From the NCBI GenBank assembly GCA_051891435.1, contig JBJFFE010000069.1:15228-79227 (forward strand): a stretch of DNA of 64,000 nucleotides, in the 5' to 3' direction. The translations under genes and the position numbers were made by a program. Within the stretch, counting starts at the first letter, position 1; every line of letters begins with the position of its first letter. The notes under the pieces were generated by a model. That model was not told where the DNA came from. It ran no database searches and saw nothing but the letters and a program-made list of their open reading frames with translations. Shown here in pieces: positions 963-62,077 of this stretch. The DNA comes from Clostridia bacterium (GTDB lineage Bacteria; Bacillota; Clostridia; TANB77; CAG-508).

Positions 963-1017
963 ATGTAGGGGCTGGTCTTGACCAGCCCGCGGGTCAGTCA
1001 AGACTGACCCCTACAAC
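963..1017. repeat. GTAGGGG...CCCCTAC family palindromic element (composite, two inner hairpins)
   Basis: The element reads GTAGGGG-CTGGTCTTGACCAGC-CCGCGG-GTCAGTCAAGACTGAC-CCCTACAAC. Confidence 0.7.
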
Positions 1018-1078
1018 AAAACAAATTAAATGTTATTAATTTTAAAAATATATATAAATTTAAAGGAGGATGACTTAT

Positions 1079-2917
1079 ATGTCAAAAATTATTGGTATCG
1101 ATTTAGGTACAACAAATTCATGTGTAGCAGTTATGGAAGGTGGAGAACCAGTTGTAATTCCAAATCCAGAAGGAAATAGAACAACACCATCTGTAGTTGC
1201 ATTTTCAAAAAATGGAGAAAGATTAGTAGGACAAATTGCAAAACGTCAAGCTGTAACTAATCCAGACCATACAGTTATCTCAATAAAAAGAGATATGGGA
1301 ACAAATAGAAAGGTAAAAATTGAAGGAGATGAATTCACACCACCAGAAATTTCAGCGATGATTCTTCAAAAATTAAAATCAGATGCAGAAAATTATTTAG
1401 GACAAAAAGTTACAGAAGCTGTTATTACAGTTCCAGCATATTTTTCAGATAGTCAAAGACAAGCAACAAAAGACGCTGGAAAAATAGCAGGATTAAATGT
1501 ATTAAGAATTATAAATGAACCAACAGCAGCAGCACTTGCATATGGTATGGATAAAGAAGATAAAGACCAAAAAATAATGATATATGACCTAGGTGGAGGA
1601 ACATTTGATGTTTCAATACTTGACATTGGAGATGGAGTATTCGAAGTTTTAGCAACAAGTGGTAACAACAGATTAGGTGGAGACGATTTCGATGAAAGAA
1701 TCATAAAATATTTAGTAGATGAATTTAAAAAAGACCAAGGAATTGATTTAAGTACAGATAAAACAGCAATGCAAAGACTAAAAGAAGCTGCAGAAAAAGC
1801 TAAAATAGAATTATCTGGTGTAGGACAAACAAATATTAATTTACCATTTATTACAGCCGATAGTACTGGACCAAAACATTTAGACATAACATTAACTAGA
1901 GCTAAATTTGAAGAACTAATTAGAGATTTAATAGAAGCTACAACAGGACCAGTAAACCAAGCATTAAAAGATGCAAAAATTTCAGCAAATGAAATAGACC
2001 AAGTATTACTAGTTGGTGGTTCTACTAGAGTCCCAGCAGTTCAAGAAGCAGTTAAAAAGATAACAGGAAAAGAGCCAAATAAAGGAATTAATCCAGATGA
2101 ATGTGTAGCAATAGGTGCAGCAATTCAAGGTGGTGTTTTATCAGGAGATGTTAAAGACTTAGTATTATTAGATGTAACACCATTATCATTAGGTATTGAA
2201 ACATATGGTGGAGTATTTACAAAATTAATTGAAAGAAATACAACAATACCAACAAAAAAATCTCAAGTATTCTCAACAGCAGCAGATGGGCAAACAAGTG
2301 TTGAAGTTCATGTTTTACAAGGAGAAAGAGAAATGGCAGCATATAACAAAACACTTGGAAGATTCCAACTAACAGGAATCCCAGCAGCACCAAGAGGAAT
2401 ACCACAAATAGAAGTAACATTTGATATAGATGCTAATGGTATAGTTCATGTATCAGCAAAAGATTTAGCTACAGGAAATGAACAAAATGTATCTATAACT
2501 GCAAGCTCAAATCTTTCTGAAGAAGATATAGATAAAGCTGTTAAAGATGCAGAAGCACATGCAGCTGAAGATAAAAAGAAGAAAGAAGAAGTTGAAGTTA
2601 AAAATAATGCCGAAAGCTTAGTATATAGTAGCCAAAAAACATTAGATGAATTAGGAGACAAAGTAAGTGGTGAAGAAAAAGCAAAAATTGAAGCAGAAAT
2701 TGAAAATGTAAAAAAAGCATTAGAAACAAATAATACAGAAACAATAAAAGATGCAACAGAAAAATTAACAACAGTATTCTATCAAATGTCTGAACAATTA
2801 TATAAACAAAATGCAGCAAACCAAGCTACCGAAGCAAACGCAGAAGGTACAACATCAACAGATGGAAATGTATATGATGCAGACTATAATGTAGAGGACG
2901 ATAACAACAATCAATAA
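1079..2917 (+). CDS. dnaK: Chaperone DnaK (Hsp70)
   Basis: [14 protein letters not shown]...DLGGGTFD motifs are present. GGAGG lies 9 nt upstream of the ATG at 1079, so the 1070 start in the ORF track sits too close to the SD. Confidence 0.95.
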
Positions 2918-2950
2918 AACGAATGAAAAACTTCGTCTAGCGTTGTTAAA

Positions 2951-3005
2951 TTGAAACAAAAAATGCTCAACGTACCTATGTACGCCTCCGCTTTTTTGTT
3001 TCAAT
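2951..3005 (+). terminator. dnaK terminator: long stem TTGAAACAAAAAA/TTTTTTGTTTCAA
   Basis: A 13-bp stem with a large loop sits immediately after the dnaK stop. Confidence 0.6.
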
Positions 3006-3120
3006 TTGCCTAGCTATACTTGTTTTTGATTCGTTTTAAAATTCATTATTCATAAGCAAATTTATATTAATTTTTTTATGAATGATAAATCTGTAAATAT
3101 TGTTATTTTTAGGTATACAG

Positions 3121-3268
3121 TAGCCAAACGCAGGGGCTTTATATATTTTAAAAGCGAAGCGCCTCGTGGGGACCGCCGTGGGCTGTTAAAGGCGTAAGCC
3201 TTGTTACAGCGCCGGTGGGAAGCGATGAGCGAATTAAAATATATAAACCCCGACGAGATTTGGCGGAC
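3121..3268 (+). ncRNA. GC-rich structured RNA candidate in the dnaK-dnaJ spacer (unknown family)
   Basis: A 150-nt patch is about 55% GC in a 28% GC genome. It has nested helices: GCCAAA/UUUGGC as an outer closure, CUCGUGGGG/CCCCGACGAG, CCGCCG/CGGUGG, and an extended hairpin GCUGU-AAGGC-GUAA-GCCUU-ACAGC with a GNRA loop. Confidence 0.35.
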
Positions 3269-3294
3269 TGTTATAGAATTATTAGGAGGAAAAT

Positions 3295-60267: not shown

Positions 60268-60463
60268 TTTATAAGGCATATAAATTATAATTTGTATAAC
60301 AATAGTCTATAATATATACATAAAATCAATTTTTGGAGTGATTTTAATAAGCATAGCATTTATTAGTTCTATACTAGGGTTTTTGAAAGAAAATAAAAAA
60401 TATTAAATTAACAAAATAAAAACTTCCTTCATATTATATACAAAAAAATGGAGGGAGTTTTTT

Positions 60464-61168
60464 ATGAATTACGAAATAATGATGAATGGAAATGTTAGAA
60501 TAGGAGAAATGGCACCAGATTTTGAAGCTTTATCAACGTGTGGAAATATAAAGTTAAGCGATTATAAAGGAAAATGGGTAGTACTATTTTCACACCCAGG
60601 AGATTTTACCCCCGTCTGTACCACAGAGTTTATTGCTTTTTCAAAAGCTAATACATATTTTAATAATTTAAATGCACAATTAATTGGTTTAAGTATTGAT
60701 AGTAATCCATCACACTTAGCTTGGATATATGACATTTATCAAAAGACAGGAATTAAAGTGCCTTTCCCAGTAATTGCAGATAGGAGTGGAGAAATTGCAA
60801 GAAAATATGGAATGATATCAACTGTACCGAAGACTACAGAAACAGTTAGAAATGTTTTTATTATTGATGATAAAGGAATAATTAGAACTATTCTTATATA
60901 TCCTTTAAATGTAGGAAGATGCATCCCTGAAATATTAAGAGTAATAGAGGCGTTGCAAACTGCAGATTGTAATAATGCATCAACTCCTGCAAACTGGGTT
61001 CCAGGTGAGCCTATTATAGTTCCAAAACCTAATACTTTTTGCGAGTTGCAAGAAAGGTTAGAAGAGATTCAAAAAAATAAAAATGGAATAAGTTGGTATT
61101 TAAGTTTTCAAAATTCTTCAGAAGAGTGTAATAAAAAAATAAGCAAAGAACATCAAAAGTCTACATAA
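60464..61168 (+). CDS. Peroxiredoxin (AhpC/Prx family)
   Basis: The peroxidatic Cys motif FTPVCTTEF is present, with a Prx6-like C-terminal extension. Confidence 0.8.
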   Translation: MNYEIMMNGNVRIGEMAPDFEALSTCGNIKLSDYKGKWVVLFSHPGDFTPVCTTEFIAFSKANTYFNNLNAQLIGLSIDSNPSHLAWIYDIYQKTGIKVPFPVIADRSGEIARKYGMISTVPKTTETVRNVFIIDDKGIIRTILIYPLNVGRCIPEILRVIEALQTADCNNASTPANWVPGEPIIVPKPNTFCELQERLEEIQKNKNGISWYLSFQNSSEECNKKISKEHQKST

Positions 61169-61240
61169 AACTTGAAATTAGAAAATAAATATGATATAAT
61201 ATGGTAGTAATTAATATTTCTAGTAAAGGAGATAATATTT

Positions 61241-61708
61241 ATGAGTAAAAAAAGAGAAAAACCAGGAGAAGTAAGAAAAAATAAAAAGGAAGAAAATAAA
61301 AGAAATTTTCAAGAACAATCACGTCAACAACTCGAAAAAAAGAAAGAAGCATATAAAAAAAGTTTAATTGTTAATTTACCAGAACATCCTAAACCAACTC
61401 AAGAATTTAGTGAAGCAGATTTAGAATATATTAAAATTGCATCAACACATCCATTAGATATTGCTGAATTTATCTCACAGGCAAATCATGGAAAAAAATT
61501 TAAAACTTTACAACAACGTGAAAGATTTTTGGAATTAGCAGAAAAATACGAAAATTATTTTTTACAATGTATGAAAAAAACAGATGTAAGAGGAAGAGAT
61601 TTAGAACAATTTACAATTAAAAATATGTTAGAAGATGCAGATAGTGAATTATCACCTGTTGATAGAAAAATATTAGAACAAAAACTACCAAAAGAAATAG
61701 AAAGATAG
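61241..61708 (+). CDS. Hypothetical basic/acidic helical protein
   Basis: It has an RBS AAGGAG, is 155 aa and has no recognised motif. Confidence 0.45.
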   Translation: MSKKREKPGEVRKNKKEENKRNFQEQSRQQLEKKKEAYKKSLIVNLPEHPKPTQEFSEADLEYIKIASTHPLDIAEFISQANHGKKFKTLQQRERFLELAEKYENYFLQCMKKTDVRGRDLEQFTIKNMLEDADSELSPVDRKILEQKLPKEIER

Positions 61709-61803
61709 AAAATCTATAATTTTTACAATTTAATACTCCTTTTTAGTTTATAAATTATAAAAAGAGAAATAATAAAAATATAAACTAAAAAGGAGGTTTT
61801 TTT

Positions 61804-61971
61804 ATGACTAAAAATCAAAGAATTAAGTGCAATGTTGCAAGCTGTAAATACAATAATGAAGCTGCAGAACTTTGCGAATTAGAAGAAATTTGGGTATGTG
61901 CATGTAAAGATTGTAACAACGGTAAAGCAGAAGACGAATCAATGTGTGATAGCTATAGATGTAAATATTAA
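61804..61971 (+). CDS. Small cysteine-rich protein (DUF1540-like, 55 aa)
   Basis: AAAGGAGG RBS precedes it. The protein is CxxSCKYN.....CxC..C-rich. Confidence 0.45.
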   Translation: MTKNQRIKCNVASCKYNNEAAELCELEEIWVCACKDCNNGKAEDESMCDSYRCKY

Positions 61972-61999
61972 TTTGTAGAGGAAATTTATTTTAGAAGGT

Positions 62000-62077
62000 G
62001 TAGGGGTCGCACTCTTGGGCGACCCGTAAATATGTGAATAATCATTATTACGGGTCGCCGAGGACGGCGACCCCTAC
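62000..62077. repeat. GTAGGGGTCGC...GCGACCCCTACAAC family element, largest composite copy
   Basis: It has 11-bp outer arms, inner GCGACCC/GGGTCGC hairpins and a 26-nt AT-rich centre. Confidence 0.7.

Follow-up and report, generated by a model that had tools for sequence, protein, structure and literature searches.

GTAG-tagged hairpins in an AT-rich clostridial window

We examined a stretch of 64,000 nucleotides from a Clostridia bacterium (GenBank assembly GCA_051891435.1, contig JBJFFE010000069.1, positions 15,228 to 79,227; the whole stretch is called the window and positions are counted from its first letter) for the short GC-rich palindromes that lie between its genes. The GC content of the window is 20-34% per 2-kb bin and its GC skew is strongly positive; nearly all genes lie on the + strand and the coding share is ~87%. 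The sequence-only reading had counted at least eight intergenic copies of a dispersed palindrome of the repetitive extragenic palindrome (REP) or bacterial interspersed mosaic element (BIME) kind. The eight sites that it listed were all present, each with (T)GTAG directly before a GC-rich hairpin. The classification was right and can be sharpened: the elements are very probably GTAG-tagged REPs, occurring as single units, as inverted pairs resembling BIMEs or REPINs (REP doublets forming hairpins) and as one 'double foot', of the type associated with TnpA_REP proteins (REP-associated tyrosine transposases, RAYTs) of subclass 2.4, or RAYT group 4.

A detector requiring GTAG before a stem of 6 or more Watson-Crick pairs, 5 or more of which are G-C, and a loop of 3-8 nt found 11 units in the 64 kb and none in 200 dinucleotide-preserving shuffles. 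In these 11 units the stem begins 0-1 nt from GTAG, which is also the most frequent 4-mer preceding GC-rich hairpins in the window; GTAGGG occurs 20 times, against an expected 7.5 ± 2.7. Depending on detection the window holds 11-16 units, with a unit density of 0.17 per kb. The hairpins measure 18-23 nt and fold with z-scores from -1.7 to -9.2, the weakest being the unit at 7080 (z -1.7; 11/200 shuffles fold equally well) and a decayed pair at 24776 (z -2.2). Every element lies outside open reading frames (ORFs) and 3' of the stop codon of a + strand gene, at a stop-to-stem distance of 6-34 nt except for the element at 62000 (~290 nt). A search of Rfam at gathering thresholds returned only a tRNA-Glu, so that no RNA family in it covers the elements.

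To describe the family we aligned 55 units, all different, drawn from low-GC relatives as well as from the window. GTAG was invariant and the preceding T conserved in ~91%. The foot of the stem, GGG/CCC, was nearly invariant, each of the three G-C pairs being present in 54/55 units, and the inner pairs varied with compensatory changes; the percentage of pairing is not independent evidence, because the units were picked as hairpin-formers. Within the window the three-G-C foot is found in all units except the unit at 19133 and two units of a GG-foot subtype (7080 and 50897). A covariance model built on this alignment (R1) gave 11 hits at E < 1e-3 in the window, three of them outside the training set, and none in its coding sequence. 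Alignment and modelling, which had been proposed as a check on the family, thus yielded conserved GTAG ends and exclusively non-coding hits at this threshold.

The elements and their sites

Four inverted pairs, at 963, 24776, 49042 and 62000, have GTAG on the outside, in agreement with the earlier description of composite copies with two inner hairpins (964-1016, 49041-49096, 61999-62078 and, decayed, 24775-24828). The shared termini GTAGGG(G) and CCCCTACA had been described for all copies; they hold for the three pairs other than the decayed one, but the unit at 25286-25312 has no 3' CCCCTAC, the site at 19133 reads GTAGAGG, and C rather than T precedes the tag at 49042. The pattern GTAGGG-N5-35-CCCTAC had no match in the window because the pairs exceed that length.

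The first pair (964..1016) occupies the grpE-dnaK spacer, its stem starting 7 nt past the grpE stop codon, and consists of GTAG-GGGCTGGTC TTG(A) GACCAGCCC on the + strand and GTAG-GGGTCAGTC TTG(A) GACTGACCC on the - strand with 2 nt between them. The two hairpins are closed by pairing of GTAG with CTAC (-18.4 kcal/mol, z -5.3), and the units scored E 1e-5 and 3e-6 with R1. The pair at 49041..49096 begins 10 nt past the stop of ORF 48742-49035 and reads CGTAG-GGGCAAGGC..GTCCTTGCTC followed by GGGTAGGC..GCCTACCC-CTACA (z -3.5; E 1e-4 and 4e-4). The most stable structure is that of the REPIN at 62000-62077, in which GTAG-GGGTCGCAC TCTT GGGCGACCC is separated by a 24-nt AT spacer from GGGTCGCCG AGGA CGGCGACCC-CTAC; the pair folds as a single long hairpin (-32.4 kcal/mol, z -9.2; E 3e-10 and 6.5e-9). 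This REPIN is the core of a composite element of ~164 nt (61955..62118) with inverted AT-rich arms, related to ATAAATTGTAATTTGTA, ~40 nt outside. The 17-mer ATAAATTGTAATTTGTA itself lies at 61961-61977, at 62102-62118 (-) and, apart from the composite element, at 60280-60297. It ends in TTTGTAG. In many metagenome-assembled genomes (MAGs) of low-GC Clostridia (L208-L324) it recurs on the outer side of GTAG REPs, 39-63 nt away, and it occurs alone too; it may itself be an AT-rich REP-like unit. The fourth pair, decayed (24775..24828; E 3.7e-4), stands between the xseA stop (24773) and the ribosome-binding site and ATG (24849) of an ORF that we call orfX.

Single units lie on the + strand. TGTAG-GGGCAGGAC TCT GTCCCTGCCC (25286..25312; E 1.8e-7) fills the orfX-xseB spacer. 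The GTAGGGAACG subtype reported at 7080 and 50897 was seen at 7079-7105 and 50896-50922, and comprises the two GG-foot units. The former, TGTAG-GGAACGGCG CCCT CGTTGTTCC, lies between a yicC-like gene and remA, has two G.T wobbles on the + strand and scored E 2.6e-6; the latter, TGTAG-G-GAACGACG TCCT CGTCGTTC, has its stem 8 nt past the stop of a mini-RNase III-like gene and scored E 7e-5, being outside the training set (z -4.5). The double-foot REP (19132..19161) is a hairpin, AGGCAGGG TTACAT CCCTGCCT, within a 5' GTAG and a 3' CTAC, 21 nt past the ppdK stop (z -5.0; E 7e-7).

Beyond the eight copies we found three decayed units, at 26699, 32708 and 33789. Their stem is GGGCGCATG..CATGCGCCC, and their tags have degenerated (GTGG, GTAA). 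The hairpin AGGGCGCATGATTGCGCCCT (26699..26718; z -4.9), also with a degenerate tag, lies 12 nt past the stop of an ATP-grasp gene. GTGG-GGCGCATGACCATGCGCC (32708..32732, +), 3' of a peptidyl-prolyl isomerase gene, is weaker (no better than E 4.2 with the covariance model), and TTGTAA-GGGCGCATGACTATGCGCCC (33789..33814, +) occupies the spacer between a DUF1189 gene and a trpS/tyrS-like gene (z -5.3; E 0.077).

Next to the unit at 50897, the region 50930-51190 contains, 5' of the single tRNA-Glu (51113-51187), two partial or degenerate copies of the 5' and 3' parts of the tRNA. They share the same ~60 nt spacer between the parts (GGCCCGT... / ...ATACCATACGTAGGGTCACAGAAA) and resemble duplications of the att-site type. 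Tandem Repeats Finder detected no array in this region, and the GTAGGG matches in the tRNA copies are unrelated to REPs.

Related units in other genomes

The pattern TGTAGGGG-N30-60-CCCCTACA returned at least 120 rows in IMG/VR, on contigs that range from 30 to 65% GC and repeat the two-hairpin design; this generic doublet is too widespread to be diagnostic. The contigs concerned (L004-L123) are classed as viral and sometimes carry several doublets each. The doublet of one of them (L093, 29.8% GC) is almost equal to window 964-1016, and another (L005) has a partial RAYT-like match.

With the 62000-type unit (GTAGGGGTCGC-N8-GCGACCC) as query, one genome per GTDB species was scanned and loci of 8 kb were taken. 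It matched at least 117 loci; ~98 of those listed come from MAGs of uncultured gut Clostridia, Oscillospiraceae and other Bacillota; Clostridium sp. CAG:452 and Christensenella intestinihominis are also among those listed. Several MAGs gave multiple loci among the matches listed, often with arrays. Identical units of 22-26 nt occur in many uncultured gut Clostridia MAGs, and identical 22-nt hairpins are common to genomes of 25-31% and 57-67% GC. REPINs homologous to the 62000 pair were found in many low-GC MAGs, three near-identical ones within 8 kb of a single locus (L247), and inverted AT-rich arms related to ATAAATTGTAATTTGTA lie ~40-63 nt outside their GTAG ends. The genome of the window does not appear among the matches listed; its closest relatives there are L220 ('uncultured Clostridia bacterium BRZ_NF__bin38'; 83% nucleotide identity over 2.8 kb) and L258.

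Transposase genes that contain the units

At 4 of the at least 117 loci (L286, L282, L302 and L259) the matched REP overlaps a gene for a Y1 HUH transposase. A regular expression for the HUH and Y motifs retrieved only one RAYT, and the others were found by tblastn with that protein. The gene of L286 (Christensenella) is intact and encodes 162 aa; the L282 and L302 loci are low in GC and L259 is high. The L286 protein passes the cut-off of Pfam Y1_Tnp and has E. coli TnpA_REP (4ER8) as its best PDB hit. Its match to NCBIfam REP_Tyr_transpos ('REP-associated tyrosine transposase') has E 2.9e-15 and a score of 56 bits, where the curated cut-off is 80. The protein's NHIH, WQ and YIxxNP motifs fit those described for subclass 2.4 (NH[IFV]H, WQ and YIxNNP; Quentin et al. 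2018, PMC6006769).

Using the frameshift-corrected L282 protein as a query we obtained 5498 homologues at E <= 1e-10, of which the closest are mostly full length and one has been named RayT by the Joint Genome Institute (JGI). The homologues contain REP-encoded peptides at two sites, one after an ICT..R..L segment and one, in inverted orientation, after the HUH motif. The two peptides co-vary between proteins (P0002-P0083), as in VGVAPLGDP/GSPRGATPT, VGANCVRP/GRTQFAPT and VGVDAHIDP/GSMWASTPT. In each of these RAYT genes the stretch coding for the HUH motif is thus flanked on both sides by the gene's own REP variant, in inverted orientation.

The DNA of such genes links them to the window. In L325 (34% GC; gene 184-777) the gene holds GTAG-GGGCAGGTCTTGTGCCTGCCC, GTAG-GGGCGCATGATTGCGCCC and an inverted GGGCGCAATCATGCGCCC-CTAC, and one more copy follows it. 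GGGCAGGTCTTGTGCCTGCCC is a variant related to the window unit at 25286..25312, and GGGCGCATGATTGCGCCC is the core of the hairpin at 26699..26718, identical to the REP embedded three times in and beside the L325 gene. L326 (gene 10001-10567) and L327, of 26-30% GC, carry identical GGGTCGATGCCCACATCGACCC units as an inverted pair bracketing the HUH-coding segment. Three stem variants of the window (GGGTCGC, GGGCAGG and GGGCGCATGATTGCGCCC) therefore occur inside RAYT genes of AT-rich gut Clostridia (26-34% GC).

Copy number and site occupancy among relatives

Metagenome contigs totalling 976 kb were taken from relatives whose XseA is 65-75% identical. These held 12 units by the detector and 7 by the model, which gives 0.007-0.012 per kb; the window, with 0.17 per kb, is ~20-fold denser. 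Some of the units in the relatives are identical to the window unit at 62077.

Occupied and empty sites could be compared directly at xseA-orfX-xseB. The two spacers measure 75 and 89 nt in the window, whereas in relatives without REPs they measure 10-25 and ~15-75 nt, respectively. The sequence-only reading had noted that two elements (24775-24828 and 25286-25312) bracket the ORF between xseA and xseB, as they do, and had taken this ORF to be inserted. The latter proposal was rejected because orfX is kept in the same place, at 24-46% identity, in dozens of REP-less relatives; the ORF is ancestral and the insertions are the REPs. Conversely, L220, at 83% identity, carries a REP together with an AT arm 3' of the ortholog of window gene 30940-31452, a site that is empty in the window.

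Look-ups with the exact PpdK and RemA proteins returned only same-species metagenome contigs of 1-4 kb. The same-species contigs L001 and L003 hold the 19133 and 7080 elements, respectively, unchanged. L001 and the window are identical through ppdK, the REP and the terminator, and are unrelated from there on (L001 3820-3909 against window 19245-19330), owing either to rearrangement at strain level or to a chimeric assembly. The xseA gene of the window (23585-24773) consists of two ORFs that overlap and differ in frame, 23585-23878 with the OB-fold N-terminal domain (PF13742) and 23844-24773 with the catalytic part (Exonuc_VII_L), representing a frameshift, a pseudogene or a sequencing error.

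Placement in transcripts and alternative explanations

The elements had been suggested to double as terminators. A Rho-independent terminator combines a GC hairpin with a T/U tract, and in none of the elements is the hairpin followed by one; the tails read ACAACAAAAC, ACGAAGGAG, AAATACG and similar. A terminator scan of the window reported none of the elements; at several gene ends it recovered stems that are rich in AT and have a T tail, the form of the real terminators of this genome. A separate canonical intrinsic terminator (~19175-19245) follows the element at 19133, and several elements lie inside operons directly upstream of the next ribosome-binding site (grpE-dnaK, xseA-orfX-xseB). 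A terminator function is therefore unsupported.

Single units lie on the sense strand in 5/5 cases in the window and in 40/47 in the low-GC MAG loci (p ~1e-6). Two explanations fit this bias: the active strand may be inserted into the template of the lagging strand, as for IS200/IS605, or selection may act on the RNA. Replication and transcription cannot be told apart as its cause, since gene direction follows the GC skew for nearly all genes. By homology with E. coli TnpA_REP and IS200/IS605, a RAYT would recognize the strand with 5'-GTAG and the hairpin as single-stranded DNA, and would cut and rejoin that strand. Copies would then build up in non-coding DNA directly 3' of genes and be co-transcribed with the upstream gene. 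In the transcript the GC-rich hairpins may serve as barriers to 3' exonucleases, and those within 15 nt of a stop codon may hinder terminating ribosomes; E. coli REPs at this distance are reported, in a statement cited in PMC12306157, to affect translation by stalling terminating ribosomes. Five elements of the window have hairpins starting at most 15 nt past the stop codon (963, 24776, 49042, 50897 and 26699).

This placement could also mean that the hairpins are not mobile DNA but RNA structures that the host evolved in place at gene ends, as terminators, attenuators or stabilizers of mRNA 3' ends. All elements are on the sense strand just past stop codons, the G.T wobbles in 7080 and 49042 pair only on the + strand, and the effect reported for E. 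coli REPs would give such structures a role. We nevertheless regard this origin as improbable: no element is terminator-like, a true terminator stands behind one of them and several are inside operons, while other genomes have the GTAG tag and identical units at unrelated sites and within RAYT genes, and presence differs among close relatives. Still less credible are conventional miniature inverted-repeat transposable elements (MITEs), that is, deletion derivatives of insertion sequences with a DDE transposase, for which TGTAGGGG and CCCCTACA would be the terminal inverted repeats. The inverted termini of the pairs and the AT-rich inverted outer arms that extend the 62000 element to ~164 nt are what such elements would have, and the sequence-only reading had mentioned MITE-like elements. 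Flanking direct repeats, however, are inconsistent (0-4 nt, in AT-rich flanks) and do not amount to target-site duplications; single units with one terminus and the double-foot form exist; the termini are the GTAG tag of hairpins that lie inside Y1 (HUH) transposase genes; and no DDE transposase shares these ends. This leaves the MITE explanation very improbable indeed.

Several observations weigh against the assignment to a subclass 2.4-type REP-RAYT system. By tblastn the 64-kb window contains no RAYT gene. Each window unit differs from all others and several are degenerate, a pattern unlike that of a REPIN population in active amplification. The GTAGGGAACG subtype had no match in any other locus outside the species, and its units are putative members by their architecture and covariance-model score. 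The MAG loci were selected by the REP pattern, so that their densities and the pairing in the alignment are ascertainment-biased. Finally, the RAYT genes of some low-GC relatives, from independent Clostridia, are frameshifted (L282 4607-5141 (-), L302 574-1055 (-) and P0117). They share a +1 shift that coincides exactly with the junction of the embedded REP after the HUH motif (AAA-C-GGGTCGCC...), where the upstream frame ends ...KRVAQGCDPYNTKN.KCV*; either a common pseudogene lineage or recoding is possible. Much of this would be expected if the elements were fossils, remnants of a REP-RAYT system that is inactive in this lineage, its RAYT lost or pseudogenised, and that now drift or are kept only where harmless or useful. 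The differences among all window units, the degenerate ones at 24776, 26699, 32708 and 33789, the missing RAYT and the genes interrupted at an embedded REP speak for such a history. On the other side, the 62000 units are identical or nearly so to units of distant genomes, the density is ~20-fold above that of relatives, close RAYT homologues from similar AT-rich organisms are mostly full length, and the 64 kb are only the examined share of the genome. Fossil status is a real possibility, although less likely than not.

A related idea concerns the source of the copies. The inverted REP pair that brackets the HUH segment in the RAYTs of gut Clostridia that resemble subclass 2.4 could be where the master copies reside, and the window elements would then be offspring of coding sequence. 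We hold this to be doubtful. Were it true, protein-coding constraint or an in-gene REPIN could explain identical 22-26-nt units in genomes from 26% to 67% GC, and the recurrent +1 frameshift of certain low-GC lineages might act as a switch in regulation and not be a sign of decay.

Comparison with known REP systems

To our knowledge, nearly all work on REP/RAYT systems has concerned Proteobacteria and Cyanobacteria. The elements reveal no new kind of element but the occurrence of a known kind in Clostridia: gut Clostridia that are uncultured and very AT-rich have a subclass 2.4-type REP family in abundance, and the same units are found in GC-rich Oscillospiraceae. In annotation such hairpins should not be labelled terminators or small RNAs. 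As repeats that break contigs they matter for the assembly and binning of MAGs, and they may be of use in strain typing. GC-rich hairpins 6-20 nt past stop codons also offer a natural test, in a Firmicute, of their effect on operon expression.

A super-family of GTAG-tagged REPs with 24 GTAG families in 8 phyla has been described (Di Nocera et al. 2013, PMC3733652); that survey mentions neither Firmicutes nor Clostridia, and the window family is not among the families listed in the text consulted. Clostridia are likewise unmentioned in RepRanger (2025), and only RAYT group 1 was placed in them by Bertels (2017, PMC5581495). The kind of element is thus well known, and these surveys do not describe the family in this bacterial group. 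The Di Nocera families (PMC3733652) resemble the window elements in the GTAG terminus, in stems of 6-9 bp, in sub-families with complementary stem changes, in dimers with GTAG outside (there named HH, head-head), in frequent G.T pairs and in sites 3' of ORFs and between co-directional genes.

With the REP/BIME system of E. coli and its TnpA_REP (YafM; PDB 4ER8), and with the REPINs of Pseudomonas, the window elements share the GTAG guide joined to an imperfect palindrome and the inverted pairs. In those systems the single-stranded DNA of the REP is cut by a Y1 HUH enzyme encoded in one copy, whose candidate counterpart is the RAYT of related Clostridia, with 4ER8 as best PDB hit. In contrast, the RAYTs there belong to subclasses 2.2 and 2.5 rather than 2.4, E. 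coli REPs have longer, bulged stems, and in Pseudomonas identical master copies predominate among the REPINs, which is not seen in the window.

The closest likeness is to subclass 2.4, or RAYT group 4. Quentin et al. (2018, PMC6006769) give its range, mainly, as 'Cyanobacteria, Bacteroidetes and various phyla', whereas the hosts here are uncultured gut Clostridia of 26-31% GC together with Oscillospiraceae of 57-67% GC; the many stem variants side by side in one 64-kb window also set the elements apart. The REPs of this subclass begin with 5' GT[AG]G, have three G-C pairs at the foot, form double-foot units (GT[AG]G ... C[TC]AC) and are inserted in-frame inside tnpA_REP (PMC6006769). The tag, the three-G-C foot, the double foot and the inverted dimers (PMC6006769; PMC5581495) recur in the window, and a transposase gene that holds REPs around and after its HUH motif recurs in its relatives (L286, L282, L302, L325 and L326).

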